A stretch of DNA of 64,000 nucleotides from an uncultured Verrucomicrobiota bacterium (lineage in GTDB: Bacteria > Verrucomicrobiota > Verrucomicrobiia > Limisphaerales > J093): positions 932 through 64,931 of the forward strand of contig CAZMOZ010000024.1 of the NCBI GenBank assembly GCA_964568145.1, read 5' to 3'. The position numbers were made by a program, and so were the translations under genes. Below are positions 1-51,500 of the stretch, piece by piece; the stretch's first letter is position 1; each line of letters begins with the position of its first letter. Under the pieces are notes generated by a model. The model was not told the origin of the DNA, did no database searches, and saw nothing but the letters and a program-made list of their open reading frames with translations.

Positions 1-1087
1 CCAGGGTCATGTCCGCCGGGTAGTCCTTGGGGTAGAGCTTCTTGACCGTGTCCAGCCACTGGTTGGCCTCGCGGTAACGCTGGTGGACGAAGTAGAAGTA
101 CACGGCGTCCAGCAGCGCGTTCCGGTGGGCGCGGGCGATGTGTTCCCGCATCTCGGGATCCTCGGCCATCATCTCCTCATAGGCGGCGTGTGTGCGCGGG
201 AAGATGTCCAGGTTCTCGCCGAAGATGATGGATTCGCCCGGCTTGAGGCGGATGATGCGGCCGCGGTGGAAGGCCAGGAAGAGCGATTGGTAAATGATCC
301 GGCGCAGCTTGATGAGCTGGTCCTTGGTCCTGGCCATCTGCCGGCCGAGGTTCGCCCAGTAGATGGCGTGCGACTCCGGCAGCCGCCATTCGAGGGGGCC
401 GTAGCGGTCGTCGGTCTCCTTCATTTTGGCTGGATCGAGCTTGTAGCGCTTGCGGAGGATGGCGACCTGTTTCCTGGCTTCCTCGGTCTGGGGATTGAGC
501 AACTCATCCCAGTTGGTCCGGCCGCCGCCGAGGAGTTTGTCCATTTCAGTGGCCCAGGCGGTTTTGAAGTACAGGTGGGCGTCGTCGAGGTTGTGCCCCA
601 GCTTGTGCTGGAAATGCCAGGCCAGCTCCCGGTACAGCTCCACCTCGTAGGGGTTGTACTTCAGCGCCTCGTCGCGGAGCAGCTCGATGCCGCGCTGCAC
701 CCAGGACCAGCGGTCCTTCGGGTTGCTGAACTTGATCGAGATGTTGTAGGACATGTTCCACGCCATCACGACCCAGACGGTCGGGATGCGCGGCTGCAAT
801 TTGGTGATCCAGTCCGCCAACTGGACCATCTCGAAGAACCGGTCCTGGTCCTGCAACTCCATGGCGCGCACCCAGAGTGCGTTCGCGATCAGGCCGCGGA
901 AGCCGCCGAGCACTACCGTGGTGAAGACCAGCACCGGCGGGGCGTTCTGGAGCGGCTCGACGCGCGTCAGGCCCAGGTCGGCCCGCAGGCGGTTGAGCTG
1001 GCGCTGGCTGAACGACACGCTGACCAGCAGCGCCGCGGCCAGGAGCAGCAACGCGAGTTTTCGTAGCAGGCTTTGGGCGCGGGTCAT
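1..1087 (-). CDS. conserved hypothetical protein with N-terminal membrane anchor; 3' end lies beyond the window start
   Basis: Not in the ORF track because it runs off the edge. Hand translation from the ATG (rc of 1085-1087) gives MTRAQSLLRKLALLLLLAAALLVSVSF...WVRAMELQDQDRFFEMVQLADWITKLQP... with no stop down to position 2. It starts 4 nt after the stop of the upstream permease. The 83-1066 + ORF is its antisense shadow. Confidence 0.6.
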   Translation of the reverse strand, partial: MTRAQSLLRKLALLLLAAALLVSVSFSQRQLNRLRADLGLTRVEPLQNAPPVLVFTTVVLGGFRGLIANALWVRAMELQDQDRFFEMVQLADWITKLQPRIPTVWVVMAWNMSYNISIKFSNPKDRWSWVQRGIELLRDEALKYNPYEVELYRELAWHFQHKLGHNLDDAHLYFKTAWATEMDKLLGGGRTNWDELLNPQTEEARKQVAILRKRYKLDPAKMKETDDRYGPLEWRLPESHAIYWANLGRQMARTKDQLIKLRRIIYQSLFLAFHRGRIIRLKPGESIIFGENLDIFPRTHAAYEEMMAEDPEMREHIARAHRNALLDAVYFYFVHQRYREANQWLDTVKKLYPKDYPADMTL

Positions 1088-36301: not shown

Positions 36302-38125
36302 ATGGATCGCAAGGCCATTCTCATTCTGATCGGCTGCTTCGCGCTGATGCTGTTCTGGCCGGCGCTGGTGGATCGCATTTTCCCGCCTCCACCCAAACCG
36401 CCTCCGGGTACCAACCGGCTGGCGCAGGCCGGCACGCTGGCGACCAACCTGGTCGCAAGCACGAATGTGACCACGTCCCCGGCCAGCCCGCCGGTCATCA
36501 GCGCGCCGGCTTCGCCCACCGTGGCCTGGGTGCCGCCGGCCGGACCGGAGGAGCTGCTAGTCTTCGAGACGGAGGAGGCGCGGTACACGTTCACCAGCCA
36601 CGGCGGCGGCTTGAAGCTGGTGGAATTGAAAGGCTATCCCGCCACCGTGGCCTGCGGACGCAAGGCGCGCACCGGCGAGGTGGAACTGGCCACGCTCAAC
36701 GCCGGAGCGCCAGTGCCGGCGCTGGCGCTGTTCGGAGGCGCCGCGCTGGAAGACAGCGTTCCGTTCAAGCTCACACGCACCGCCCAAGGCGTGCGGGCCG
36801 AGAAGGCGCTGGGCAGCGGTGTGCGGATCGTGAAGGAGTTCGTGGCCGGCACGAACAACTTGCTCGCCGCCAGCGTGCGGCTGGAGAACGCGGGCGGTTC
36901 GCCGGTCGCGTTGCCCCCGCAGGAGCTGGTCATCGGCACAGCCACGCCCATCAACCGGCGCGACGACGGGCATTTGCTCGGTCTGCAATGGTACGACGGC
37001 GAGCGGGCGCAGTTCATTGACAACACCTGGTTCCTGAATGCCCCCGCCTGGGGTTGCGGCTGCGTGCCCGGCACGCCCCGCGCCGAGTTCCTCAGCGCCG
37101 GTGTGAGCAACGTGGTCTGGGCGGCGGCGCACAACCAGTTCTTCGTGATGATCGCCGCGCCGCGGACCAACGCCCCGGCGGTGGTGGCCCGCAAGATCCA
37201 TCTGCCCCCGCCGTCCGCCGCGGAAACGGCCGAGGACCGCCGCGTGGTGGCCCAGCCATTCGGCATCCAGACCGCCTTCGTTTATCCCACGGCCACGCTG
37301 GCGCCGGGGCAGACTGTGGAATGGGTCCTCGACGTGTTTGCCGGCCCCAAGGAGTACCACACGCTGGCCAAGCTGAGCCGCAACCAGGATCAGGCGATGC
37401 GCTTCACCACGTTCTTTGGCTGGTTTGCGCGGGCCTTGCTCCTGGGCATGAACGGCCTGCACGGCCTGGGCCTGTCCTACGGCCTGGCCATCATCGTCAT
37501 CACCATCATCGTCAAACTGCTGTTCTGGCCGCTCACCCAGGCCAGCTCGCGCTCGATGAAGCGCATGGCGGCGCTCCAGCCGCAGATGAAGGAGATCCAG
37601 GAGAAGTACAAGGACGACCCGAAGAAGATGAACCAGAAGCTCATGGAGTTCATGAAGGAGCACAAGGTCAGCCCGCTGGGCGGCTGCCTGCCCATCCTGC
37701 TCCAGATTCCGGTCTTCATCGGCTTTTACCAGATGCTCCAGAGCGCCATCGAGCTGCGCGGCGCCCGCTTCCTCTGGGCCTGCGACCTGTCCCAGCCGGA
37801 CACCGTGGCGGTGATCTTCGGCTTCCCCATCAACCCGCTGCCCCTGATCATGGGCGCCACGCAATTCTGGCAGGCCCGGCTCACCCCGGTCTCGCCCGGC
37901 GTGGACCCGGTCCAACAGAAGATGATGCAGTACATGCCGCTCATCTTCATCTTCATCCTGTACAACTTCTCCGCCGGGCTGGCCCTGTACTGGACGGTGC
38001 AAAACCTGCTCAGCATCCTCCAGATGAAACTCATCAAGAACCTGAACGACCCGGCCGCCAAGCCGCCCGCGCCGCCCGCCCCGGGCAAGCCGCTTCGGCC
38101 CGGCGGCCCGGCGCGCAAGAAGTAG
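36302..38125 (+). CDS. yidC: membrane protein insertase YidC
   Basis: Start at ATG 36302 (MDRKAILILIGCFALMLFWP). The C-terminal core is GLAIIVITIIVKLLFWPLT...MKRMAALQPQMKEIQEKYKDDPKKMNQKLMEFMKEHKVSPLGGCLPILLQIPVFIGFY. Confidence 0.95.
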   Translation: MDRKAILILIGCFALMLFWPALVDRIFPPPPKPPPGTNRLAQAGTLATNLVASTNVTTSPASPPVISAPASPTVAWVPPAGPEELLVFETEEARYTFTSHGGGLKLVELKGYPATVACGRKARTGEVELATLNAGAPVPALALFGGAALEDSVPFKLTRTAQGVRAEKALGSGVRIVKEFVAGTNNLLAASVRLENAGGSPVALPPQELVIGTATPINRRDDGHLLGLQWYDGERAQFIDNTWFLNAPAWGCGCVPGTPRAEFLSAGVSNVVWAAAHNQFFVMIAAPRTNAPAVVARKIHLPPPSAAETAEDRRVVAQPFGIQTAFVYPTATLAPGQTVEWVLDVFAGPKEYHTLAKLSRNQDQAMRFTTFFGWFARALLLGMNGLHGLGLSYGLAIIVITIIVKLLFWPLTQASSRSMKRMAALQPQMKEIQEKYKDDPKKMNQKLMEFMKEHKVSPLGGCLPILLQIPVFIGFYQMLQSAIELRGARFLWACDLSQPDTVAVIFGFPINPLPLIMGATQFWQARLTPVSPGVDPVQQKMMQYMPLIFIFILYNFSAGLALYWTVQNLLSILQMKLIKNLNDPAAKPPAPPAPGKPLRPGGPARKK

Positions 38126-38172
38126 CAAGAAGTAATCCGCGCGGCACCCCCCTCCACCCCCAACTCATCGCC

Positions 38173-38631
38173 ATGCCCGCCGACCCCAAAGCTCTGACCG
38201 CGGAGTTCCTCCGGCTCCTCGGCTTCCCCGACCTCACCATCGAAGAGCACGCCGACGAGGAGGGCGTGACGCTCGCCATCCAGGGCGAGGACGCCGCGCG
38301 CCTGATCGGCCGCCAGGGCCAGACGCTCGCCGAGCTCCAATACCTGATCAACCGCATGATCTACCAGGCCGACCCGGCCGCGCCGAAGGTGAGCCTGGAC
38401 GTGGCCAATTACCGCAGCGCCGCCCGCGAAGCCCTCGTGGCCAAGGCGCGCGCCGCCGCCGAAAAGGTGCGTCGCTGGGGCGACATCCTGGAACTGGAGC
38501 CCATGAACGCCTACGACCGCTACGTCGTCCACCAGACGCTCAAGGACGATCCCGAGGTCGAGACCCACAGCGTGCCCGTGGACGGCAGCACCAAAAAGGT
38601 CATTGTGCTCCGGCCGCGGCGCGCGGCCTGA
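38173..38631 (+). CDS. jag: Jag/KhpB-type RNA-binding protein (KH + R3H domains)
   Basis: The ATG at 38173 gives a KH-like IGRQGQTLAELQYL motif and R3H-like LEPMNAYDRYVVHQTLKD. The position after yidC is canonical. Confidence 0.85.
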   Translation: MPADPKALTAEFLRLLGFPDLTIEEHADEEGVTLAIQGEDAARLIGRQGQTLAELQYLINRMIYQADPAAPKVSLDVANYRSAAREALVAKARAAAEKVRRWGDILELEPMNAYDRYVVHQTLKDDPEVETHSVPVDGSTKKVIVLRPRRAA

Positions 38632-38667
38632 GAAACGAGTTTGGGGAACGCGCCCGCCTCGGTCGTG

Positions 38668-38696
38668 GCCGGACGCGCCGCGCGTCCGGCTTCGTT
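38668..38696. terminator. candidate bidirectional terminator hairpin between convergent jag and vsr
   Basis: gccggacgcg-ccg-cgcgtccggc forms a perfect 10-bp stem and is followed by ttcgtt. Confidence 0.4.
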
Positions 38697-38737
38697 GAAA
38701 CTCCGCCGCGCTTCCCCCCGATTCGAAGGAATACCTT

Positions 38738-39328
38738 TCAAAGACGCGAAGGCACGCCTGACTTAAAGCCGGCAAGAAGGAACTTCGCGGAGCTTTCGCG
38801 CCGGGTGAGGCAGTTGCAGCGGATTCTTTCCTTTCGCGTGGCTTGGCGTGTTTGGTGGCCAGTACCGGTTTCCAAGTTCAAGACCCCGCTCTCCAGCGCG
38901 CGCCGCAGCCGCGCCACGAGTCGTGCTTCCCGCCGACGCGCCAGTTCATGTTCCCAGATGCGGAGCACCCGCCAGCCGGCGCGCCGCAACGCCCGGTTCA
39001 CCGCCCGGTCGCGGGTCCGATTGCCCTCGATTTTCCGCCGCCACCACGCCGCCCGGTGCGCCGGCCACGTCGCGTGTTTGGGACAGCCGTGCCAGAAACA
39101 GCCGTCCACGAACACCGCCAGTTGCAGCTTGGGGAACACGAAATCAGGCCGGACGCGGAAACTTCGGCCTCCGGCCTTCGCGCTTCGGACTTCCCATTGC
39201 TTCCGCCAGCCCGTGATGCCGTGCCGCCGGAACAACCTTGCCAGCGCCGCTTCCGTGTCCCGGTTCCCCCGCGAACGGATGCGCGCCATCACCTCCGACC
39301 GTTTGGCTTGGGTGAAAACGTCAGGCAT
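38738..39328 (-). CDS. vsr: very-short-patch repair endonuclease
   Basis: RSEVMARIRSRGNRDTE...RPDFVFPKLQLAVFVDGCFWHGC....W..KI..N..RD is the Vsr signature. ATG 39328 is preferred over the TTG at 39334. Confidence 0.85.
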   Translation of the reverse strand: MPDVFTQAKRSEVMARIRSRGNRDTEAALARLFRRHGITGWRKQWEVRSAKAGGRSFRVRPDFVFPKLQLAVFVDGCFWHGCPKHATWPAHRAAWWRRKIEGNRTRDRAVNRALRRAGWRVLRIWEHELARRREARLVARLRRALESGVLNLETGTGHQTRQATRKERIRCNCLTRRESSAKFLLAGFKSGVPSRL

Positions 39329-39377
39329 GGTCAACTTCGAGATGCCCGAAGCACACTCAACGGTCTGAAGGCCACCC

Positions 39378-40874
39378 CTATCCCTGCGCCGCGATGGCGA
39401 ACATCTCCACCAGCGCGCGAATTTTCTTCAAGCCCAGCCCCGGCCGCTGCCGCAACTGCTCCCACGTCAGCACCGCGTAGGAGGACACCATGTCCCGCCG
39501 GCGCGTGCGCACCCACTCGCGCCCCGTGAATGCCTCCAAGCCTTCGATGGTGCGGGCGTCCCCCAGGAACTTGGGCCGGAGTTGTTCCCAGGTCGCTGCC
39601 AGCGCCTCCTCTTCGGAACGGGGTGCAATGAACGGCGCCGCCGCCAGTTCCGCCTGCCAGTCGCCCGGCAGCGCGATCTCCTTTTGCCGAAACGCCTCCC
39701 AGCACTCCGCCTTCTTCGACGCCTCCCCCACGTTGCCCTGCTGGTGGTTGAGATGTTCCCACGCTTCCTTGCAGACCGTTTTCAATGCCTCGCACAACGC
39801 CGGCGACAGCCGCTGCTCCGTCCAGATGCGGTTCAAATCAATCCGCCGCCCGGACTTCTCCGCCAGCCACGCCACCGCGTAGGCCACGCTGTTGGCCCGG
39901 TAGCCTTCCAGGTCCAGCGTGTCGAACAGCTTCTCCGCCGTGTGCCACAGAATCGCCCTGGCCACGGCGTGCCGGAAATAGTCCAGATTCACCTCCGGCT
40001 CGCCCTCGTCCTCCATGCGCTCGGCGAAGCGGACAAAGTTCTTCTCCGCGCCAAAGCACACCCAGTGCGGCAGCCCCAGCCAAGCGTGCTCGTATTTGGC
40101 GAGGTCGGTCTTGGTGAACTTCTGGTGCTTGGGATTCTGGACCTCCCACTCCCGCCGCCGGGCCGGCGTGCCCTGGCGCGCCTTGTCATCCAGATAGGAA
40201 CCGCGCGCCCGTTCGTAATACCAGTGCGTCCCGCGCGCCAGCCCGCCCACCGCCGGCGCCCAGACGCTCCGGGACAACTGCTCCAACTGATGATGAAACG
40301 GCCCGTTGGCCGCCAGGTCGGCCGCGTTGACCTTGTTCTGGCTGTTGGCGAAGCGGGCAATCAGCGGCACCAACTCACCGATCCGCTCCGGCTCGTTCAG
40401 CACCGTCAACTTGACCTGCACCACGACTTCACCCACGTCCAACCGCTCCTTCTTCTGCGCGTGGTAAATGCTGGCCGTGGTCTGCCCGCCGTTGACGATT
40501 TGGAAGTCCCGCGCCCACGCCAGCCCGATCTGGCCATCCCGGCGCTTCTCCAGTCGCACCTCCGCCGCGGTGCAGCACAGCCCGTTGTTGTAGGCCAGGA
40601 AGCGGTGTGGTTCCTCGCGCAGCGTCTGCTGGAGACCCTTGTTCACCTTGCCCTTCACCTGCAGGAACGCCCGGACGTTCCGCTCCAGCAGCCGTTGCCC
40701 ATGCTCGCCGTAGATGCGCGCCAGCGTCTTGCCGGGCATGAACGCCAGATAGGTTTGATACTCTCTCGAATTCTCCATCCCGGCCAGGCAGGGAATGGCC
40801 CCGCCGAAATCGCGCTCGAAATCCAGCTCGATCACCTCGCGCTGGCCAACGCGAAGCTGGCTGAGCTTCTTCAA
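39378..40874 (-). CDS. AIPR (abortive-infection phage resistance) family protein, C-terminal fragment with extra ~70-aa tail domain
   Basis: FLAYNNGLCCTA...IVNGGQTTASIY...ARFANSQNKVNAADLAANGPFH is a pattern characteristic of the Pfam AIPR family. This is the same reading frame as 40911-41438, separated only by a TAG. Confidence 0.8.
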   Translation of the reverse strand: MKKLSQLRVGQREVIELDFERDFGGAIPCLAGMENSREYQTYLAFMPGKTLARIYGEHGQRLLERNVRAFLQVKGKVNKGLQQTLREEPHRFLAYNNGLCCTAAEVRLEKRRDGQIGLAWARDFQIVNGGQTTASIYHAQKKERLDVGEVVVQVKLTVLNEPERIGELVPLIARFANSQNKVNAADLAANGPFHHQLEQLSRSVWAPAVGGLARGTHWYYERARGSYLDDKARQGTPARRREWEVQNPKHQKFTKTDLAKYEHAWLGLPHWVCFGAEKNFVRFAERMEDEGEPEVNLDYFRHAVARAILWHTAEKLFDTLDLEGYRANSVAYAVAWLAEKSGRRIDLNRIWTEQRLSPALCEALKTVCKEAWEHLNHQQGNVGEASKKAECWEAFRQKEIALPGDWQAELAAAPFIAPRSEEEALAATWEQLRPKFLGDARTIEGLEAFTGREWVRTRRRDMVSSYAVLTWEQLRQRPGLGLKKIRALVEMFAIAAQG

Positions 40875-40910
40875 GTCCCAGAGGACGTAGCGCAGCTCCA
40901 GCCCGGCCAG

Positions 40911-41438
40911 CTATTCCTCCTCGATGTCCTCGGCGCGCGCCACCCCGTCGGTGAGGTAGAACAGCCGGACCGTGGTCAGCGCGTCCCTGGCCTCGTGGAT
41001 GGCGCGCGCGATTTCGAAAGCATCATTCCGACTGCCCCCGGCCTGAGTGTGAAAACCCTCGCGTGCCCGGCGCAGAAAGCCCAGGAGCAGCTTGAACTGT
41101 TTTCGGGTCTCGGTGACCCCGACCTTTTGCACGCCCGGCGCGCCGTGGTAAAGCGTGACGAACAAGTCCAGCGTCGCGCCATCGCCGGACAACGCCCACG
41201 CATTCAGCTTCGCGGCCGGCCAGCGACCGCGACTCTCGGCTCGGAATGGCCGATCCGGCAGAACGTCGGCGTTGTCCGCCTCATTGTGGCCGGCCAGTTC
41301 CTCGAGACACCATTCGGTGAAGCCGCGCTCCAGTTCATCGGCGGGTGCGTTCTCGGCGCAGCGCAACCGCACCTCCTCCCGCACGTCCTGCGCGAACTGT
41401 TCGAGCGGGCTTAAGGGAGCAGTGTTCTCTTCAGGCAT
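40911..41438 (-). CDS. N-terminal fragment of the AIPR gene (175 aa), ending at an in-frame TAG
   Basis: ATG at 41438 and stop TAG at 40911-40913. The next 12 codons (LAGLELRYVLWD) run in frame into the AIPR core ORF. Confidence 0.6.
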   Translation of the reverse strand: MPEENTAPLSPLEQFAQDVREEVRLRCAENAPADELERGFTEWCLEELAGHNEADNADVLPDRPFRAESRGRWPAAKLNAWALSGDGATLDLFVTLYHGAPGVQKVGVTETRKQFKLLLGFLRRAREGFHTQAGGSRNDAFEIARAIHEARDALTTVRLFYLTDGVARAEDIEEE

Positions 41439-41504
41439 GGTGAACCTCCATCAACGTTGGTGGGGCAGACTTTCGTGTCGGACGATGTGCCGGGCGTCCG
41501 GTTC

Positions 41505-41655
41505 GTAGCGCAGGTTTCCAACCTGCTGTATCGCTGGCTTCCAGCCGGCCGGCCGTCGAAAGGCAGACGAGCTTGGAACATTCGGAGCGTGCAGTCGGTC
41601 CGGAGGCTCTGCGGATTGGAAATCCGCGATACGGCAGACTGGAAGTCTGCGCTAC
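41505..41655. mobile_element. MITE-like repeat unit, copy 1 (151 bp, ~30-bp imperfect terminal inverted repeats)
   Basis: The left end is gtagcgcaggtttccaacctgctgtatcgc. The reverse complement of the right end is gtagcgcagacttccagtctgccgtatcgc, matching at 25 of 30 positions. An internal palindrome gcggattggaaatccgc is present. Confidence 0.7.
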
Positions 41656-41693
41656 GACCGGCGGCGCTGCGGCCTGCGGCGGCCACTGCCACC

Positions 41694-41843
41694 GTAGCGC
41701 AGGTTTCCAACCTGCTGTATCGCCGGCTTCCAGCCGGCCGGCCGTCGAAAGGCAGACGCGCTTGGAACATTCGAAGCGTGCAGTCGGTCCGCAAGCTCTG
41801 CGGATTGGAAATCCGCGATACAGCAGACTGGAATCTGCGCTAC
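41694..41843. mobile_element. MITE-like repeat unit, copy 2 (150 bp)
   Basis: Near-identical to copy 1, in the same orientation, and separated from it by a 38-bp GC-rich spacer. Confidence 0.7.
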
Positions 41844-41856
41844 CCGGTTGACCATG

Positions 41857-43965
41857 TCAGTCATCGCGTCCTTGGAGCGCCGCCTCCAGCAGGCCAAGGA
41901 GGCCCTCCCGCTTCGCGGTGCTCAGACCCGCGCCCTTCAGCTTGTCCCAGGAAAGCCTGGCGTAATCGCTGACCTTCTCCTTGCGCCGCGAGCGGTCCCA
42001 CTCATGGCCGGTTGCCGCCTCCAGCTCGCCCAGCGGCCGATCGTCTTTGATGAACTTCTGGCGCACCTCTTCCCAGCGATCTGGCATCGCGCCACGCCAC
42101 CCGGAGGAGGGGAGCACAGGCGACTCGCCTGTTCCGTCCGGCGACCCGCCGGACGGCACGGCCCCGGCGTGCCGAGCCGATGAGGATGGTTTGTTCCCGG
42201 ATTGGCCTCCGGTCTTTCCGGTCGGCGGGTCGCCGACCGGGGCGGGCGGGTCGCCCGCGCTACCCATTCCGCGGCCGCCCTTCTTCCCCTTGGGCCGCCG
42301 TTCGGGCAACGCGGCCAACCGGTCCAGTCGCTCCGCCACCCGCGCCCGCACCGGCGCATCCTTGTCCGGCTTCCACTTGGCCGCCTGCTCCAGAAAATTC
42401 TCGTCGCCCAGGTCCGTGTAGATCAGGTCCTCGTCCATCTTGATCCGCACCAGCAGCGGGAACCGCACCGCCTGTCCGCTAATGATCCCCTGACCCGGCC
42501 CGAAGCCCGGCAGCATCCGCGCGTCCTGGTCGCTCAGGTTCTCCATGATCTGCTTCACGAAATTTTGGTCGCGCGGGTTCACCAGCCGGAGAATCAGGAA
42601 CGAGTTGCACTGCGAGAGAATCGTCTCGTCCACCCGGCTGGGCCTCTGGCTGATCAGCATCAAGCCCGTGCCAAACTTGCGGCCCTCCGTGATGAGCTTG
42701 CGGATCGTCTCCAGCGACGGCACGTCCGCCGTGCCCTCGCGCGACGACGGGATGAACGTGTGCGCCTCCTCGATCACCGCGAGGAAGGGCGGAATCCGGT
42801 TCGACAGGTTGGCGCGGTGCTCGTAAAGCGCTTCCAGCAGAATCGAGGCGATGGTCGTCTGCGTCATATGGTCGTAGCCGCCGAGGTAGAGGATGGAAAC
42901 GGTCTTGGGCGCAACGATGCCCTCCGGGCGGCCCTGCGGATCGGGCATTTGATCAAACTGAAGCTGCTTCAACCGCTGCCGCATCCGCTCGTTGGTCAGC
43001 TCCATCCGCTCCAGCCGCGTCTCCACCACGCCCAGTTGGCGGCGGCAGACCGACAACGTCGGCAGCTTGCGCTTGTCACCGGCCTGGCCGGCTTTCTTCG
43101 CCAAGGAATCGCGCAGCCGCTTGATGTAGCGCAGCACCGACTCGCCCTCCACGGGATCCACCTCCGACAATGACTCACCCAGCACTTCCCGCTGCGGCTC
43201 GCTTAGTCCCTCCGTCATCTTGTTGATGAGGATTTCCACGATGTGCCGGTTCTGCTCCGTCATCGCGATGTGCGGATACAGCAGCCGCACGGTCGTGCCG
43301 GCAAAAACCTCGCGCTTCTGCCACAGCCCGAGGTAGTCCCCGTGCGGGTCCAGGATCAAGAGCGGGTAGCCCCGGTCAATCAGCTCCCGCAGAATCCGCC
43401 GGGCCGCCACCGTCTTGCCGCCGCCGGTCATCGCCAGAATGGCGATGTGCCGGGCCACCACGCGGTCGGCCGAAATGGCGATGTCCACGTCCCCCCGAGC
43501 GATGAGCGTGCCGATGTGCAGGGGCGTATGGCCGGGAATCCCACCCGCCAGCAGTTCCTTGATGGCCGCCGCCGGGGGATACAGCACCTCCGCCGCTGGC
43601 TGCACCGGATACGTCAGCGGATGGAGGTTCTTGAAACCGCCGTCCGCCGGCGTCCAGCCCAGAATCAGCACGCCCGCCTCCAACTGGTCCCGGCTGTTCG
43701 AGAGGATCGTGTCCTGCAACGACAGCCCCTCGTTCGACAATTCCTGCGCGGCCTCGTAAGGGAAGAACGGGTTGTAGCGGTTGATGCTGACCACCCGGCC
43801 CCAGACGTAAATCCCCTGCGTCCCGGCCCGCGCCTCGTCAGGCACCTCCATCCGCACCGCTACGAGGTCGCCCACACGCGAGTTGAAGCCACCCGTGTTG
43901 AAACCGAACTGAAACTCTCGACTCCACAGCACCAGCCCGACTCGTGGCCATCGTTCAAGCGGCAT
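41857..43965 (-). CDS. HerA-like (DUF87/FtsK-HerA superfamily) ATPase with disordered linker and ~73-aa C-terminal tail domain
   Basis: Walker A AILAMTGGGKT, Walker B FLAVIEEAH, then LISQRPSRVDETILSQCNSFLILRLVNPRDQNFV. The N-terminus is barrel-like, and a Gly/Pro/Ser-rich linker precedes the tail. Confidence 0.85.
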   Translation of the reverse strand: MPLERWPRVGLVLWSREFQFGFNTGGFNSRVGDLVAVRMEVPDEARAGTQGIYVWGRVVSINRYNPFFPYEAAQELSNEGLSLQDTILSNSRDQLEAGVLILGWTPADGGFKNLHPLTYPVQPAAEVLYPPAAAIKELLAGGIPGHTPLHIGTLIARGDVDIAISADRVVARHIAILAMTGGGKTVAARRILRELIDRGYPLLILDPHGDYLGLWQKREVFAGTTVRLLYPHIAMTEQNRHIVEILINKMTEGLSEPQREVLGESLSEVDPVEGESVLRYIKRLRDSLAKKAGQAGDKRKLPTLSVCRRQLGVVETRLERMELTNERMRQRLKQLQFDQMPDPQGRPEGIVAPKTVSILYLGGYDHMTQTTIASILLEALYEHRANLSNRIPPFLAVIEEAHTFIPSSREGTADVPSLETIRKLITEGRKFGTGLMLISQRPSRVDETILSQCNSFLILRLVNPRDQNFVKQIMENLSDQDARMLPGFGPGQGIISGQAVRFPLLVRIKMDEDLIYTDLGDENFLEQAAKWKPDKDAPVRARVAERLDRLAALPERRPKGKKGGRGMGSAGDPPAPVGDPPTGKTGGQSGNKPSSSARHAGAVPSGGSPDGTGESPVLPSSGWRGAMPDRWEEVRQKFIKDDRPLGELEAATGHEWDRSRRKEKVSDYARLSWDKLKGAGLSTAKREGLLGLLEAALQGRDD

Positions 43966-43971
43966 AAGCGA

Positions 43972-43988
43972 TGTGCTAAACTAGCACA
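43972..43988. promoter_or_regulatory. candidate operator palindrome in the 58-bp HerA / XRE divergent intergenic region
   Basis: tgtgcta-aac-tagcaca has perfect 7-bp inverted arms and is the only strong symmetry in the spacer. Confidence 0.4.
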
Positions 43989-44023
43989 CTTCCGGCGGCG
44001 CAGTCACGTAAAGTGGCTGAAAA

Positions 44024-44266
44024 ATGCCGCGAAAACAACGAGTCAACCTGGTCGGTGAACGTGTTAAAATAGCACGTCAGCGTCGCAACCCGCCGCTCAC
44101 GCAGGACGACCTTTCGGGCCAGCTCGCCGCCTACGGCATCCAACTAGATCGCATCGCCATCTCCCGAATCGAAGGCGGCAGCCGTTACGTGACGGATACG
44201 GAGGTGCGGGCCTTTTCCAAGGTTCTCGCCGTTTCGCCGGCGTGGCTCCTCGGCATGGAGAAGTAG
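44024..44266 (+). CDS. XRE-family helix-turn-helix transcriptional regulator
   Basis: An 80-aa protein. GERVKIARQRRNPPLTQDDLSGQL......IAISRIEGGSRYVTDTEVRAFSKVLAVSPAWLL is an HTH_3 pattern. Confidence 0.85.
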   Translation: MPRKQRVNLVGERVKIARQRRNPPLTQDDLSGQLAAYGIQLDRIAISRIEGGSRYVTDTEVRAFSKVLAVSPAWLLGMEK

Positions 44267-44269
44267 GCC

Positions 44270-46303
44270 ATGCCAGCCTTCTACCGGGCAACCGTTGCTG
44301 GTTTTCTGGACGCCGACCCGGCGGCAGTGATCGGTGAGTTGAACCTGCAAAGCCGGCACGCCGTTTCCAGCCTCCGCCTCACGACCGTTATTTCCTGGGA
44401 GCGGACAGTCGCGGTGCTGCGGGCAGCACTGCACGAGGTAACTGCGAAATTGCCAGCGGCGGTTGAGTGGGGCGTGCTACTGGAATACGAGGTGCCACGG
44501 CGGGATTGCCGGATTGACTGCGTGCTCCTCGCCGGCCAGTTGATAATCGTCCTGGAGTTCAAGACCGGCACACCGGAGAGCCGTTCGGCGGCGAAGCGGC
44601 AGGTCGAGCACTATGCAATTGAGCTTCGCGATTTTCACCAGGAGAGCCGGAACAAGCCTATTGTGCCAATTGCAGTGCTTGCCGCAGGGGTCGAATTCCT
44701 GCCCAACCTCGCTCAAGAACTGCCCGACCCTGTTCGTCCGGTTCAAGTCACCGGAGACACCATGCTCTCCACAGCGTTGCTCCAGGTCACGCAAGCACAC
44801 GCCGTTGACGTGGCCAGCGGCCAGATCGGGTTGGCGGCATGGGATGGCTCTGCGTATGCGCCGATTCCGAACATCGTGGAAGCCGCCCAGATGCTCTTCG
44901 CCCATCAAAGCGTGCGCGAGATTTCCCATGCCCACACGGAAGCCTTCAATCTGACCAAGACCACGGACGTTTTGGTCGAGGCGGTTCGGCGCGCGCAGCG
45001 AGAACGGCGCAAGCTCGTCTGTTTCGTGACGGGCGTTCCCGGGGCGGGCAAGACCTTGGCAGGCCTCAACGCGGTCCACAGCCCGGATTTAGTCCGCGAC
45101 GGGCGACCTGCGGGCGCGTTCCTCTCCGGCAACGGGCCGCTGGTCAAGGTAGTCACTGAGGCGCTGGCGCAGGACCATCATCGTCGGACGGGGGACAGCT
45201 TGGCCGAGTCTCGGCGTCGGATTCGGACGTTCATCCAAAGTGTCCAAAGCTTCCTGAAAGAATACCGGCCCGCGGATCGTTTGCCGCCGGAGCGAGTGGT
45301 GGTTTTCGATGAAGCCCAGCGGGCCTGGGACGCCGTGAAAGTCCGCAAGGAACTGCTTCGCCGTGCCACATCCGAGGAGCGCGGCCTGCTTGACTCGGCC
45401 AATTCCGAGCCAGCGCTCATGCTGAGCATCATGGACCGGCTTCCTGACTGGGCGGTCATCGTCGCGCTGGTTGGCGGCGGGCAGGAAATCCACGATGGCG
45501 AGGCAGGCTTGGCGGAGTGGGGCCGAGCGGTGCGCGAACAGTATCCGCACTGGGAGGTTGTGGCATCGCCAGAAGCCTTGGAGGGCGGCTCCAGTGTCGC
45601 AGGCAGTCGGCTCTTTTCCAGCAGTGGCTTTGGCCCTGTCACGGTCCGCCGGGAAGCCCACCTGCACCTGCCGGTGGCAGTCCGGTCGTTCCGGGCGCAA
45701 GCCGTGGCTGACTGGGTCAACGCCGTTGTGAATGGCAATGCACAGGAAGCAGCCCGCGTTGCCGGGCAGGTTACCAGCTTCCCAATCAGGCTCACGCGCT
45801 CCGTGGACGAAGCCCGCCGCTGGTTACGCCAACAAACGCGCGGCTTCAGGCGGTGCGGTTTGCTGGCGAGTTCTGGTGCATTGCGACTGCGAGCGCATGG
45901 AATCGAAGTCTCGTCTGGGTTCCGTGACGGCTTTCCGTTCGAGGAATGGTTTCTAGCCGGGCCGGATGATGTCCGCTCGTCGAACCGGCTGGAGGTCGCG
46001 CTGACCGAGTTCGAATGCCAGGGGCTGGAACTCGATTGGGTTGGCGTCTGCTGGGGATCTGATTTTGCCTGGGACCAGGATGGGTGGCGGTTCCGTCAGT
46101 TCAAAGGGACTTCCTGGCAGTCCGTGCAAAAGGCTGCGACGCGCGAGTTCATTCGCAACAAATACCGAGTTCTCCTGACACGGGCGCGGGAGGGCCTCGT
46201 CATCTGGGTTCCCGAAGGAAGCGTCGAAGATGAAACCCGCCCGCCTGCATGGTTCGATTTGACTGCCGATTTCCTGGCACGGTCTGGCGCTGCGGCACTT
46301 TGA
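44270..46303 (+). CDS. DUF2075-type (Schlafen-helicase-like) P-loop NTPase with N-terminal PD-(D/E)xK-like nuclease module
   Basis: The N-terminus LLEYEVPRRDCRIDCVLLAGQLIIVLEFK gives an E...D...ExK pattern. Walker A is VTGVPGAGKT, a DEAQ-type box is VVVFDEAQRAW, and an SF1-like end is YRVLLTRAREGLVIW. It starts 3 nt after the XRE stop. Confidence 0.75.
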   Translation: MPAFYRATVAGFLDADPAAVIGELNLQSRHAVSSLRLTTVISWERTVAVLRAALHEVTAKLPAAVEWGVLLEYEVPRRDCRIDCVLLAGQLIIVLEFKTGTPESRSAAKRQVEHYAIELRDFHQESRNKPIVPIAVLAAGVEFLPNLAQELPDPVRPVQVTGDTMLSTALLQVTQAHAVDVASGQIGLAAWDGSAYAPIPNIVEAAQMLFAHQSVREISHAHTEAFNLTKTTDVLVEAVRRAQRERRKLVCFVTGVPGAGKTLAGLNAVHSPDLVRDGRPAGAFLSGNGPLVKVVTEALAQDHHRRTGDSLAESRRRIRTFIQSVQSFLKEYRPADRLPPERVVVFDEAQRAWDAVKVRKELLRRATSEERGLLDSANSEPALMLSIMDRLPDWAVIVALVGGGQEIHDGEAGLAEWGRAVREQYPHWEVVASPEALEGGSSVAGSRLFSSSGFGPVTVRREAHLHLPVAVRSFRAQAVADWVNAVVNGNAQEAARVAGQVTSFPIRLTRSVDEARRWLRQQTRGFRRCGLLASSGALRLRAHGIEVSSGFRDGFPFEEWFLAGPDDVRSSNRLEVALTEFECQGLELDWVGVCWGSDFAWDQDGWRFRQFKGTSWQSVQKAATREFIRNKYRVLLTRAREGLVIWVPEGSVEDETRPPAWFDLTADFLARSGAAAL

Positions 46304-47564
46304 GCAGCGGCGGGACGGCGTTGCCGATGAGGCGGAGTTGGTGGGTGCGGGCGACGGGGAACTCGAACCAGTCGGGGAAGCTTTGCACACGGGCCGCTTC
46401 GCGGGGCGTGAGCGAGCGGCTTTGCGTGGGGTGGATGAACATCAGCCCGTCCTTGCTCAGGTGCGCGACGATGGTGGAACAGAGCCGGTGCCGGTGCTGC
46501 CGCGTGTAGCGGTCCTTGAAATGGTCCTTCGAATAGGGCCACTCGAACTCCACACCCCGGCGCATGGCGGCGGCGGAGCTTTCGCCCTCGTTCAGCCGGG
46601 CGAAGTCGCGCAGGTCGCGGTCGCTGTGCGGGCGGGCGACGTGGGCGGTGAGCCGACGGGCGCGGTGGATTTCCAGCACCTCCTCAAGGTAGCGGCCGCC
46701 GTAGCGGGCGAGGTGGTCGCGGCGGCGTTCCAAGTCGTAGTCGGTTTCCTCTTCGCCTTCGCCAGCGGCCAGCGGGGGCAGGTCGCCGATGGCTTCCCAG
46801 AGGGTAACCGCGGGTTCGAGCGTTTCCCAGAGATCGTCGTCGGGCGCGGCGAACTGCGGCGGCATGAAACGCAGGGCGGTGAAGATGGGCAGTTCGCGCC
46901 GGGTGCCGATGATGAGCTGGCGGATGCGTTTCTGGGGCACGCCGTAGTGCCAGGCGCGGACCTCCTCGCCATGCACGCGGTAGCCCAGCGCCCGCGCCTC
47001 GGCCTGCACGCGCGTGAAGAACTCGCCCCCGGCGGCGGTCTTGATACCAAGGACGTTCTCCATGACAAATACCCGCGGCTCGAAGTAGGCCACGTAGGCG
47101 AGGAATTCCTGGTAGAGGTAGCGGCGGGGGTCTTCCTTGAGCTTCGCGCCGTGGTTGGAGCCGTCGCGCCGGCGGGCGTTCGAGAATCCCTGGCAGGGCG
47201 GCCCGCCGACGATCACGTCCACGCGCGGGGCCGCCCCCTCACCCCGGCCCTCTCCCCCGGCGGGGGAGAGGGTGCCCGCAGGGCGGGTGAGGGAGTCGTG
47301 AAGCAGGTCGTCGAGGTGTTCTGGGTGGAACTCGGTGAGGTCTTGTTCGAGGACGAGCGGGATGTGGGGCAGGTTGCGCCGGAGCACGGCGATGGCCTCC
47401 GGGTTGGAGTCAATGGCCGCCAAGGTGCGGAAGCCGGCGCGCTCCATGCCGAGGGTGAAGCCGCCGCAGCCGCAGAAGAGGTCCAGGCAGGTCAACTTCG
47501 AGGGGCTGCCGTTGCTCCGGCTGGTGCGCCAGGGCGACGCCGAGCAGGATCGGGCGCCGCTCAT
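46200..47564 (-). CDS. dcm: DNA (cytosine-5)-methyltransferase
   Basis: Motif I DLFCGCGG, motif IV GGPPCQGFS, motif VI ENV, motif VIII QKRIR, then TPREAARVQSFPDWF and motif X GNAVPP. Confidence 0.9.
   Translation of the reverse strand: MSGARSCSASPWRTSRSNGSPSKLTCLDLFCGCGGFTLGMERAGFRTLAAIDSNPEAIAVLRRNLPHIPLVLEQDLTEFHPEHLDDLLHDSLTRPAGTLSPAGGEGRGEGAAPRVDVIVGGPPCQGFSNARRRDGSNHGAKLKEDPRRYLYQEFLAYVAYFEPRVFVMENVLGIKTAAGGEFFTRVQAEARALGYRVHGEEVRAWHYGVPQKRIRQLIIGTRRELPIFTALRFMPPQFAAPDDDLWETLEPAVTLWEAIGDLPPLAAGEGEEETDYDLERRRDHLARYGGRYLEEVLEIHRARRLTAHVARPHSDRDLRDFARLNEGESSAAAMRRGVEFEWPYSKDHFKDRYTRQHRHRLCSTIVAHLSKDGLMFIHPTQSRSLTPREAARVQSFPDWFEFPVARTHQLRLIGNAVPPLLKVPQRQTVPGNRQSNRTMQAGGFHLRRFLREPR
47236..47293. 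repeat. family-C palindromic repeat embedded in frame in dcm
   Basis: ccctcaccccggccctctcccccggcgggggagagggtgcccgcagggcgggtgaggg has nested inverted repeats and encodes ...LTRPAGTLSPAGGEGRGEGAA.... The same sequence family occurs intergenically at 4662-4800 and 51360-51490. Confidence 0.7.
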
Positions 47565-47788
47565 CAGTCCACCCCCTCCACCAGCTTGGCCGTTGGGATG
47601 CCCAAGGCCCGGGCCAGGCGGACGACATTCTTGATGCCGGGGTTGCGCGTGCCGCGCTCGATGTCGCTGATGTAGGTGCGGTCGAGGTCGGCCTTTTCGG
47701 CGAGTGTCTCCTGCGTGAAGTCACGGGCTTCCCGAAGTTCGCGCACCTTCTGCCCGAAGGTGGCGAGGATCGAATCACGCTTTGGCAT
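47564..47788 (-). CDS. XRE-family HTH regulator (controller-protein-like), translationally coupled to dcm
   Basis: A 74-aa protein. FGQKVRELREARDFTQETLAEKADLDRTYISDIERGTRNP is an HTH_3 pattern. Its TGA overlaps the dcm ATG by 1 nt (TGATG). Confidence 0.85.
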   Translation of the reverse strand: MPKRDSILATFGQKVRELREARDFTQETLAEKADLDRTYISDIERGTRNPGIKNVVRLARALGIPTAKLVEGVD

Positions 47789-48132
47789 GACCGATAGAAC
47801 ACTCCCGTGTCGGCAATGAGTCTATCGGCGATGAGTGACAATGTGCGAAATCCGCACACCGGCGCCGGGATGCGCCGCCAAGGGCGGAGGCCCATTCAAG
47901 CCAGCGGCGGCGCTTGTTCTCCGGTGGTTTGTCTTCCACAGGCCCGGACCGGGATGTGCTGATTCAGTACTGCCCGCCGTGGTCGCAATGGAGCCGCGAC
48001 CCGGCTGTGTTGCTGGGGCGAGGCAGGTCGGCGCACGCCGGAACGGTGGCTGCGCCGGTGGCGGCGTCGGCTGGCTTGCCCGAGCCGGATTCGCGCCGCG
48101 GACTCACGTCCGCAGCCACGGAAGCTTTGGAG

Positions 48133-50035: not shown

Positions 50036-51127
50036 GCCCAAGCCGATGACTTCCTTGCAGTACTTGAGGCTCCGCTCGAGTTCGGCCTTCTGGTATTCGC
50101 GTTCGGCTTGCTGGCGGTCCTGGCCGTCAGCGGGCTTGAAGGTCGGGATGGCGCGGCCCTTTCGGGCCAGGGCGAGGAACTTCGCGAAGTCGGCGGCGCG
50201 CGCCTTCGGCCACACGTCCCAGAACCCGGGCTTGAGGTACGGGAACTCGATGTTGAAGCCGGAGATGATCTCCGCATGCACGGCCACGCCGGGGCACAGT
50301 TCGGCCAGCGCGGCAAAGAAGGCCTTCGCGTCCGTGCAGCCCTCGCCGATGGCGGTCCACGCCACGCGCGCGCCGTCCTCGGTCTCCCAGATCATCGAGT
50401 CGCGGATGTGCGTGCAGGCCACGTACGGGGCGAGCTTGGCGAGGCTGTCCACCGGGTCTTCGAGCGTCCAGGTGACGTTGCCGGAGTCGAAGGTGACGCC
50501 CACGTAGTCCTTGCCCGCGGCCTCGACGAGTGTGATCAATTCCCAGGCCTGCATGTCGCCGGCGTGGTTTTCGATGGCGATCTTCACGCCGGCGTCCAAC
50601 GCCTGGCTGCGCGCGGCGCGGCAGATCTTCACGGTGTCCTCGATCCGCTTTTCGATGCCGCCGTCGGTCTTGCGGTCCTCGCGGGTGCCGAGCACGCAGC
50701 GGAACACCGGCGAGCCCAGCGCCTTCGCCAGCCGGAGGCCCAGGCGCAGGTGCTCCTCGGCGGTGCCGTAGTTGTTGCGAAACGCCTTCGAGGTGGGGCA
50801 GATGCTCCAGGAGCCGAGCAGCAGGTCCACGCCTCGGTCCCGCGCGCGCGCCTTCACCTCGGCCAGGTAGGCGTCGTCGAACTTCTCGAGCGCGTCGAGG
50901 TTGGTGATGAACAGCGAGTCGAGCTGCTGCGCGGCGGCGTAGTCAATGAGTTGCGGCGCCTTCCAGCCGAAGGCGCGGAGCGAGAAGTTGTCGAAGCCCA
51001 GCTTGGTCTTGCGCGGGGCGCCCTGGGCCAGCGCCGGCAAACCGGCGGCGGCGAGGGCGGCGCCGGCCACGGCGGTGGTCTTCAGAAAGTCGCGGCGATT
51101 GGGGGCGAAACGGGTGCTCATGTTCAT
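50024..51127 (-). CDS. sugar phosphate isomerase/epimerase (xylose-isomerase-like TIM barrel) with Tat signal
   Basis: Start at ATG 51127 (MNMSTRFAPNRRDFLKTTAVAGAALAAAGLPALAQG). IAIENHAG and TFDSGN motifs are present. The ORF extension to 51271 is repeat sequence. Confidence 0.8.
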   Translation of the reverse strand: MNMSTRFAPNRRDFLKTTAVAGAALAAAGLPALAQGAPRKTKLGFDNFSLRAFGWKAPQLIDYAAAQQLDSLFITNLDALEKFDDAYLAEVKARARDRGVDLLLGSWSICPTSKAFRNNYGTAEEHLRLGLRLAKALGSPVFRCVLGTREDRKTDGGIEKRIEDTVKICRAARSQALDAGVKIAIENHAGDMQAWELITLVEAAGKDYVGVTFDSGNVTWTLEDPVDSLAKLAPYVACTHIRDSMIWETEDGARVAWTAIGEGCTDAKAFFAALAELCPGVAVHAEIISGFNIEFPYLKPGFWDVWPKARAADFAKFLALARKGRAIPTFKPADGQDRQQAEREYQKAELERSLKYCKEVIGLGLKA

Positions 51128-51189
51128 GCGGCAACGGCGGAACGTTGTCGCAGGAACCGGCGCCGAAGCAAGCCGGTTTGGCACTTGGC

Positions 51190-51500
51190 ACCCCGGCGGG
51201 ATGCATTCCGGTTTCATGCAGGGCGTTCGTGGGACTGGGTTGGTGTGGTTGGGAACTTGCTGAACTCCCACGGCTCACCAGCGGAACCCGAAAACCGAAG
51301 CTGGCCGTGGCGCAGTGCGTCCCGCCTGCCCAACTTTGATTTTCGGGCTCAGCGGCACCCCCGTTCCCCTCACCCCGGCCCTCTCCCAGCGGGAGAGGGA
51401 GGACCGTCATCCGCGCTGGGTTGACCGAAGGCGCCGGGGTGCGCGCGCCGGGTCTGGGAATCTGCCCTCTCCCCGAGGCAGAAGGTCAGGCTCTCAACGT
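51190..51500. repeat. family-C composite repeat with a family-A hairpin (51285-51349) nested inside
   Basis: Collinear with 4555-4890 except for the inserted family-A unit, which is flanked on both sides by cagcgg. Confidence 0.6.

Follow-up and report, generated by a model that had tools for sequence, protein, structure and literature searches.

Insertion of a PDC-S41 cassette into a Dcm-led NurA-HerA-AIPR operon in an uncultured Verrucomicrobiota bacterium

Background

We analysed a defence island of an uncultured Verrucomicrobiota bacterium (assembly GCA_964568145.1, contig CAZMOZ010000024.1), in which a protein of the candidate defence family PDC-S41 (hereafter S41) and a small XRE-family helix-turn-helix (HTH) protein converge on a C5-cytosine methyltransferase (Dcm) and its controller (C) protein. 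The window, i.e. the whole stretch of DNA that was analysed, is 64,000 nt long, and an initial annotation made from the sequence alone covered its positions 43966-47788, reading the four genes as a restriction-modification (R-M)-like module that lacked a classical restriction enzyme. We found that XRE and S41 form a cassette inserted within an operon of the type C-Dcm-NurA-HerA-AIPR-Vsr, which is intact in relatives. The apparent R-M system without a restriction enzyme hence becomes a testable case of turnover inside a defence island, in which a candidate single-gene defence has replaced the nuclease of a methylase-led HerA-AIPR system.

Gene content of the locus

The island is flanked by yidC and argH. 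The minus strand carries C, Dcm, HerA, AIPR and Vsr, the plus strand XRE and S41. The following features were identified (positions are those of the window).

43972-43988, plus strand: palindrome resembling an operator, TGTGCTAAACTAGCACA (core GTGCT-N5-AGCAC), its centre about 44 nt 5' of the XRE ATG, within the 58 bp that separate the divergent starts of HerA and XRE
44024-44266, plus strand: HTH protein of the XRE family, 80 aa, which presumably represses its own cassette (HTH_31, 5.7e-5; PADLOC Control_protein, 2e-5)
44270-46303, plus strand: S41, 677 aa, Nhi-like nuclease-helicase (PADLOC PDC-S41, 1.2e-227; PF09848, 2.8e-75)
44270-44869, plus strand: PD-(D/E)xK nuclease domain of S41, residues 1 to about 200 (E72, D83, E96 and K98 predicted to be catalytic)
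S41 residues about 249-648, plus strand: DUF2075 superfamily 1B (SF1B) helicase domain (Walker A at 255-262, DEAQ at 347-350, QGLELD and TRAR motifs)
46200-47564, minus strand: Dcm, 454 aa, motifs I-X (Pfam DNA_methylase, 1.1e-55)
47564-47788, minus strand: C protein, 74 aa (HTH_3, 4e-18; PADLOC Control_protein, 2e-22)
47843-47857, unstranded: symmetric palindrome variant GTGCG-N5-CGCAC, about 62 nt 5' of the C ATG
47956-47970, unstranded: one-mismatch copy of GTGCT-N5-AGCAC, 5' of C
41857-43965, minus strand: HerA/DUF87 ATPase, 702 aa (Pfam and PADLOC), its start divergent from XRE and 58 nt away
39378-41438, minus strand: AIPR (MzaE-like) gene with an in-frame TAG at 40911-40913 (MzaE match, 5e-83)
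38738-39334, minus strand: Vsr-type T:G mismatch endonuclease, 198 aa, final gene of the ancestral operon (Pfam Vsr, 3.6e-15)
41504-41833, unstranded: pair of 141-nt repeats, each containing inverted repeats, between HerA and AIPR, resembling a miniature inverted-repeat transposable element (MITE) or a repetitive extragenic palindrome (REP) (repeat families D1 and I2-I6)

The four open reading frames (ORFs) and their coordinates, the 3-nt spacer from the XRE stop to the S41 ATG (TAG GCC ATG) and the single base shared by the C stop and the Dcm ATG (TGATG) are as initially described. The domain calls made there (PD-(D/E)xK-type N-terminus, SF1 helicase, Dcm and controller-type HTH) agree with Pfam, PADLOC and the invariant motifs, the HTH_31 match of XRE being weak and under the curated cut-off. 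Two points had to be amended: the 3'-terminal 104 bp (46200-46303) are common to the convergent Dcm and S41 ORFs, which had been missed, and the statement that the island holds no recognisable restriction endonuclease ORF was wrong, HerA, AIPR and Vsr adjoining on the Dcm strand.

Insertion of the XRE-S41 cassette

Related loci, designated below by L numbers, carry the operon intact. In L087/L088 it reads HTH (74 aa)-Dcm (571 aa)-437-aa protein-HerA (657 aa)-AIPR (705 aa)-Vsr (205 aa) on a single strand and tightly packed, and the same operon was found in L199 (a Limisphaerales metagenome-assembled genome) and L200, giving the general layout (C)-Dcm (571-650 aa)-NurA (433-437 aa)-HerA-AIPR-(Vsr). 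The 437-aa protein is a NurA-family nuclease, as many of its homologues bear PF09376 or the NCBI name NurA. NurA had no PADLOC match, for which reason the intact operon is captured by none of the PADLOC models queried.

When the L087 proteins were compared with the window by tblastn, C was 73 % identical to its counterpart, Dcm aligned through residues 25-415 (window 47537-46302), HerA was 77 % identical and aligned from residue 7 (43950), AIPR aligned through residues 1-685 in one frame and Vsr was 53 % identical, while the same search with L087 NurA found no trace of a nurA remnant. Of the six operon genes the window has all but nurA, in the original order and at 53-77 % identity; it further departs from the intact operon by the missing C-terminal domain of Dcm and the stop codon in AIPR. 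It is a disrupted derivative of the C-Dcm-NurA-HerA-AIPR-Vsr operon.

The breakpoints are sharp: homology to L087 Dcm ends one base inside the S41 stop codon and homology to HerA resumes at 43950. Since nothing of nurA is left between them, the XRE-S41 cassette (about 43966-46303) occupies the nurA slot, inverted relative to the operon, and the Dcm C-terminal domain was lost with it. GC content at third codon positions (GC3) sets the cassette apart, with 0.70-0.74 for XRE and S41 vs 0.84-0.90 for the flanking genes, in L001 and L002 as in the window, where S41 has 0.71 and its neighbours 0.84-0.88. L002 shows synteny with the window from yidC to argH and the same junction, and L199 offers the "empty site", i.e. 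the MazE-PIN-C-Dcm context of L002 with nurA in place of the cassette. A second nested insertion was found in L121, this time in an Mza-type operon, where Dcm (motifs IX-X lost, truncated to HMM positions 4-323/430 of the profile hidden Markov model) is followed by HTH and S41, both inverted, by DUF4420 (C-terminal half only), AIPR and Vsr.

An assembly chimera at the Dcm/S41 junction was ruled out, as L001 and L002, which are independent assemblies, have the same junction; a joint "43475->46556" seen in one run was set aside as an artefact, its anchor being only 20 nt long. As a separate observation, the synonymous divergence (dS) of S41 between the window (44270-46303) and L002 (10001-12034) is about 2.0, far above that of the flanking HerA, AIPR and Dcm (0.5-0.7), which could reflect allele replacement of the cassette by recombination or a weaker codon constraint.

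Truncation of Dcm and partial decay of the operon

Dcm homologues of 65-80 % identity mostly have a length of 530-600 aa, about 540-570 aa in close relatives, and carry an extra C-terminal domain of about 140 aa, absent from the Dcm of the window and of L002. The window Dcm diverges two residues after motif X (GNAVPP), its last 34 codons (46200-46301) being the antisense of the S41 3' end; motifs I-X are retained and the helix after motif X is replaced. Its ratio of nonsynonymous to synonymous divergence (dN/dS) is 0.26-0.38 against L001, L002 and L087. HerA has a dN/dS of about 0.2, HerA and AIPR together range over 0.10-0.21 between the window and L002, and all genes of the locus stay below 0.4 against L001, L002 and L087. 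As Dcm keeps all its motifs and no gene reaches 0.4, the decay of the older operon is recent and partial.

Decay is most visible in AIPR. Its in-frame TAG replaces a Lys (L087) or Arg (L002) codon and was confirmed in exact-strain contigs from two independent public metagenome runs, in which co-occurring strains have AAG or GAG; it is a recent strain-level knockout. The sequencing runs that contain this sequence were all metagenomic DNA runs. In L001, AIPR is broken independently, being split into ORFs of 343 aa and 347 aa. The 141-nt direct repeats between HerA and AIPR (41504-41644 and 41693-41833) are 96 % identical to each other and reach a read depth of about 1200x vs about 45x in their surroundings, which points to a MITE/REP-like element highly multiplied in the population. 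Within dcm itself, between motifs I and IV, a REP-like GC-rich hairpin (CCCTCTCCCCCGCCGGGGGAGAGGG...) lies in frame at about 47222-47272 and adds about 22 residues (..SPAGGEGRGEG..); its depth of 120-650x vs about 45x elsewhere marks it as a multi-copy element. Peptide strings resembling this insert also occur in other ORFs of the window, e.g. near 50943-51410.

Two C-terminal domains of the operon were noted besides. That of Dcm, for which no Pfam match was found, is conserved in a clade of homologues (P0122, P0128, P0134, P0139, P0148, P0172 and P0181; alignment A2, columns about 500-680) with the motifs FKRGW, LHPD, SGWPV and EAxRRF. Dcm proteins bearing it lead different operons, i.e. NurA-HerA-AIPR in L087, HATPase_c_3 in L086 and, in L089, a set made of a DrmE-like protein, a DUF2075/ResIII helicase, a Helicase_C protein and an MZB protein, so that the domain may be an adaptor between methylase and effector arm. 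The C-terminal domains of HerA and AIPR, about 85 aa long, are homologous to one another (34-44 % identity, E 5e-9; window 41857-42100 and 39378-39600, L087 HerA 567-649 and AIPR 591-681), which suggests a docking or DNA-binding module shared by the operon partners. The two kinds of C-terminal domain were compared and are not the same.

The S41 protein

S41 residues 2-676 match positions 3-652 of the 657 in the PADLOC model PDLC05014 (PDC-S41), i.e. the full length of the model, and Pfam assigns the protein to SLFN-g3_helicase/DUF2075. The E..D..EFK and GVPGAGKT motifs pointed out in the initial annotation are real: E72, D83, E96-F97-K98, Q111/Y115 and the Walker A are invariant in 18-22 homologues with 50-78 % full-length identity, and so are the DEAQ, QGxExD and TRAR motifs among the aligned homologues.

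Structure comparisons were consistent with a nuclease-helicase fusion. The full-length model matched the SF1B helicases SLFN14, Upf1, Dna2 and SETX in Foldseek, weakly (best E 9e-4, TM score up to 0.26), and the N-terminal 200 residues were therefore modelled separately. The resulting model was confident, with a predicted local distance difference test (pLDDT) score of 90.5, and its best matches were all PD-(D/E)xK nucleases (McrC, Can2, Cdn1, VC1899, Bax1, AdnA and Dna2), with weak E-values of 1e-2 or more and probabilities up to 0.84, in line with the nuclease-type N-terminus of the initial annotation. PADLOC also gave a weak Cas4 HMM match for the N-terminus (2e-3). A profile search of S41 against PDB sequences returned P-loop-level matches only, and domains reading 5-methylcytosine (5mC), namely SRA, PUA and DUF3427, were recognised neither by Pfam nor among the structure matches.

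The protein is under purifying selection (dN/dS 0.08-0.16) and belongs to a large family of more than 8000 homologue clusters, 7999 of the 8000 scored candidates having E-values of 1e-10 or less and nearly all being 660-690 aa long. Members were found on plasmids of Bacillus and Exiguobacterium as well as on 22 IMG/VR (predicted (pro)viral) contigs, among which host islands may be included; these plasmid and IMG/VR relatives match the PDC-S41 model too. A search for PDC-S41 in the literature library that could be queried found no paper mentioning the family.

Association of S41 with methylases

To describe S41 neighbourhoods, 188 S41 loci representing 114 lineages (clusters at 70 % identity) were gathered from GTDB species, IMG/VR and metagenomes. 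The best 80 matches to the query alignment were taken from each collection, towards which the sample is biased, and many of the metagenome contigs have short flanks. Neighbours were called from six-frame ORFs with small custom HMMs, two Pfam censuses excepted.

A C5-methylase lies within 1.5 kb of S41 or of the HTH-S41 unit at 18 loci, i.e. in 13 of the 114 lineages, and the remaining 101 (about 89 %) have no methylase within that distance, many neighbours being housekeeping genes. In the Pfam census of the 185 nearest neighbours, PF00145 was the sole family seen more than three times (7/185) and no other methylase class recurred. The C5-methylase is the sole recurrent neighbour family of S41 besides HTH, a small HTH ORF standing directly 5' of S41 in 23 of 104 lineages.

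The 13 linked lineages are heterogeneous. The methylase is truncated or frameshifted beside an intact S41 in six of them, typically at the cassette boundary, is apparently intact in five and is cut by a contig end in two. S41 is intact where the neighbouring Dcm is lost or broken in L006, L017, L121, L132/L137, L144, L195 and L091-L093; Dcm is absent from L091-L093, and in L006 it is gone, with only C and Vsr fragments left around an intact XRE-S41 pair. L004 has an unrelated C5-methylase in the same position, beside an S41 69 % identical to that of the window. An earlier view of ours, that S41 has no real methylase link (5/80 GTDB loci within 10 kb), was revised once the IMG/VR and metagenome loci and a near-versus-far density test had been added. 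The link of S41 to C5-methylases is real and specific, concerns a minority of lineages and is mixed in nature.

Palindromes in the XRE and C promoters

The XRE protein of L001 is 100 % identical to that of the window, and the one of L002 89 % (dN/dS of 0.08 or less). TGTGCTAAACTAGCACA is the sole exact GTGCT-N5-AGCAC site in the window, and the core also stands 5' of XRE in L001 and L002. An exact copy occurs about 63 nt 5' of C in L001, L002 and L087/L088, and the window C promoter has the GTGCG-N5-CGCAC variant at the equivalent position. Across 94 loci, 13 exact matches were counted, ten of them in XRE or C promoters (coordinates of the palindrome or of a symmetric variant outside the window: L001 5103-5117 and 9166-9180; L002 9704-9718, 13605-13619 and 13717-13731; L087 7707-7721). 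L004, L006 and L008 have GTTCT/GTTCC-N5 variants that co-vary with changes in XRE helix 3, a pattern that fits binding of XRE to its own operator. The distribution of the palindrome further suggests that the two HTH proteins, XRE and C, share an operator, and cross-talk between the XRE operator and the C protein is a possibility, for which the palindrome provides a direct handle on regulation between two defence systems. A scan of 43700-48100 for sigma-70 promoters and terminators gave no promoter and nothing above shuffled controls.

Comparison with known systems

S41 matches PDC-S41 over its full length; PDC-S41 is a computational PADLOC candidate defined as a single gene, whereas the window copy is accompanied by XRE and lies within an operon led by Dcm. 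It also has the architecture, i.e. a single polypeptide with an N-terminal PD-(D/E)xK nuclease and, after it, a DUF2075 SF1B helicase, of Nhi from Staphylococcus epidermidis (SERP2475; Bari et al.) and of the Nhi-like protein of Millman et al. 2022, both of which are single-gene anti-phage defences (bioRxiv 10.1101/776245; 10.1101/2022.05.11.491447). It differs from Nhi in length (677 aa vs a 470-position Nhi model), and the plasmid relatives of S41 match the Nhi model only at the P-loop region (1e-5 to 1e-6). By analogy, we treat S41 as Nhi-like in its working and not as a member of the Nhi family.

C proteins control Type II R-M systems such as PvuII, Esp1396I and AhdI. With these the locus has in common a C5-methylase, a nuclease gene convergent with it, a controller HTH gene that overlaps the following gene at its stop, and palindromic boxes 5' of the HTH genes. 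However, in the window the gene coupled to C is that of the methylase instead of the nuclease, the latter being a 677-aa helicase fusion found mostly without a methylase, and the methylase comes from another, multi-gene operon. The obligatory link between nuclease and methylase that defines those systems is absent from the S41 family, given the 101 lineages without a methylase and the six broken ones among the 13 linked.

The older operon recalls Mza (MzaA-E: methylase/MutL-like/Z1/DUF4420/AIPR) accompanied by Dcm and Vsr, in that AIPR matches MzaE and that Dcm and Vsr bracket the operon. In the intact relatives, NurA and HerA stand instead of the MutL-like, Z1 and DUF4420 genes; PADLOC found neither Z1 (MzaC) nor DUF4420 (MzaD) in the window, the MzaE-like AIPR being the sole Mza component. 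The operon looks like a HerA/NurA variant of the Mza theme. The intact operon also recalls the HerA-NurA end-resection pair and HerA-containing defences (SIR2-HerA and DUF4297-HerA), its HerA/DUF87 gene following a NurA-family gene; the window has lost nurA and its HerA bears the C-terminal domain common to AIPR. Finally, the window Dcm matches DrmMII models (9e-76) and its homologue in L089 leads a DISARM-like operon, but no DrmA, DrmB or DrmC, which class 2 DISARM comprises, was found in the island. A literature search on AIPR/HerA/Vsr and Mza found nothing relevant.

Interpretation of the composite locus

We consider it probable that the locus is composite, i.e. that an autonomous, XRE-autoregulated, Nhi-like cassette is nested in a C-Dcm-NurA-HerA-AIPR-Vsr operon whose modification arm is Dcm, and that the resemblance of the region to an R-M system arises mostly because one defence system has landed in another. 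In the older, methylation-associated unit on the minus strand, the C protein would time or limit transcription, Dcm would mark the cell's own DNA, Vsr would repair the T:G mismatches left by 5mC deamination, and NurA, HerA and AIPR would be the presumed effector arm. The newer unit on the plus strand, a 2.3-kb XRE-S41 cassette, was inserted in inverted orientation directly 3' of dcm, an event that deleted nurA and the Dcm C-terminal domain. By analogy with Nhi, S41 would load on phage or plasmid DNA or on replication intermediates, unwind it with ATP and nick or degrade it; XRE would bind the palindrome 44 nt 5' of its own gene and keep the potentially toxic S41 low; and self-protection of S41 would be independent of Dcm. 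Its autonomy is supported by the full-length PDC-S41 match, the conserved length of the family, the small HTH as sole conserved neighbour at most loci, the presence of members on plasmids and predicted (pro)viral contigs and the intact S41 genes beside a lost or broken Dcm. What the data show directly is the gene content, the insertion with its breakpoints, the intact operon of relatives, the family census and the purifying selection on S41; the nuclease and helicase activities, the role in defence, the autoregulation by XRE and the independence from methylation are our inferences.

Several results weigh against this composite reading. S41 did not match the PADLOC Nhi model (PDLC02372) even at E-values up to 10, and we know of no member of PDC-S41 that has been tested experimentally. 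The density of C5-methylases is 3.98 per 100 kb near the unit vs 0.34 at 1.5-10 kb, i.e. about 12-fold higher, so that the initially proposed survey of DUF2075 proteins and C5-methylases does show, for S41, a specific link in 13 of the 114 lineages, which fails in the other 89 % or so; the enrichment raises the question of how S41 relates to 5mC, with indifference, protection by it and hostility to it as the options. The linked lineages show convergent, divergent and co-directional layouts. Tight co-directional MzaC(Z1)-MzaD(DUF4420)-MzaE(AIPR)-Dcm-S41 operons occur in two S41 lineages only 43 % identical to each other and have co-diverged as a block; they lie on IMG/VR contigs L112 (573-11923) and L107 (330-9959) and also in L097 and L110, with gaps of 10-28 nt, and none of the four contains a MutL-like MzaB gene. 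The same palindrome is present at the XRE and C promoters, including those of C in L087/L088, which have no S41, and hints at shared regulation. Lastly, the truncated Dcm, HerA and (in L002) AIPR are still under purifying selection since the loss of nurA, and the remaining operon genes may still be working, perhaps together with S41. For this lineage, four of these points (an adjacency that is not random, Mza-Dcm-S41 operons, a common operator and the selection on Dcm, HerA and AIPR) keep other readings alive as a minority.

The initial annotation had favoured an R-M-like arrangement, in which S41 would be a methylation-sensitive, ATP-dependent restriction arm, Dcm would protect the host and each arm would have its own HTH regulator. 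The C5-methylase being the sole recurrent non-HTH neighbour of S41 speaks for it, as do layouts that match those of C-regulated R-M systems, whether convergent (window, L004), divergent with Dcm on one side and C-S41 on the other (L130, L184) or co-directional from Dcm to S41 (L097, L107, L174). Many of the HTH proteins 5' of S41 are controller-like, with GACTnnnAGTC-type boxes upstream in L092/L093; the palindrome is common to both promoters, and the window Dcm keeps motifs I-X under selection. We nonetheless regard this arrangement as unlikely, and unsupported as an obligatory one, because S41 persists where Dcm is lost or broken (six of the 13 linked lineages, and L006 with its C and Vsr fragments) and methylases of any recurrent class are missing near most S41 genes. 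The unrelated methylase of L004 would require a change of S41 specificity, and the window Dcm is clearly derived from the NurA-HerA-AIPR operon, which leaves little room for Dcm as the element keeping S41 in check. The fallback offered at the time, an orphan Dcm next to a stand-alone DUF2075 gene, came closer to our findings as regards the stand-alone gene and not as regards Dcm, which is no orphan but the modification arm of the HerA-AIPR system. Rather improbable, in our view, is a functional replacement of NurA (of MzaB in Mza-type operons) by S41, which would then be the nuclease or motor of a hybrid Dcm-S41-HerA-AIPR-Vsr system. S41 does always stand directly 3' of dcm, the slot of nurA in L087/L199 and of a MutL-like ATPase in L086; the operons of L097, L107, L110 and L112 place it co-directionally with Z1, DUF4420, AIPR and Dcm while missing the MutL-like gene; and HerA and AIPR have remained under selection after the loss of nurA. 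Yet the cassette is inverted in the window and in L121 and has its own regulator and a distinct GC3, AIPR has been broken independently in the window (nonsense) and in L001 (two ORFs), and other relatives keep S41 without any HerA, AIPR or Z1.

We give very little credit to a Type IV-like activity, by which S41 would attack 5mC or otherwise modified DNA and be tolerated only where dcm is disrupted or its specificity compatible. Such an activity would explain why cassettes often cut into dcm, truncated at the cassette boundary in six lineages; in L112, moreover, the start of an HNH protein (Type IV methyl-directed restriction endonuclease model, 3.5e-11) overlaps the S41 stop and is followed by a RhuM/PDC-S05 gene, and DUF2075 NTPases have been noted beside modification-dependent endonucleases (PMC6765204). 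It is hard to reconcile with the intact Dcm-S41 operons of L097, L107, L110 and L112, with the persistence next to S41, through substantial divergence of the window lineage, of an ORF-intact Dcm bearing all its motifs, and with an S41 bearing no recognisable 5mC-reader domain. More speculatively, though less readily set aside, S41 proteins might be interchangeable effector or "cuckoo" modules with a specific tie to C5-cytosine methylation. In Dcm-AIPR-Vsr operons, whether of the HerA-NurA or of the Mza type, they would settle directly 3' of dcm, oust the nuclease or ATPase genes residing there, join the controller circuit through the shared GTGCT-N5-AGCAC operator and be gated by Dcm methylation or by the C protein.

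Additional observation

A 349-aa ORF (37726-38775, minus strand) has a coding-like GC3 of 0.81 and no Pfam match and shares 400 bp with the 3' end of yidC. It may be spurious, as the syntenic L002 holds a KhpA/R3H gene in its place on the opposite strand.

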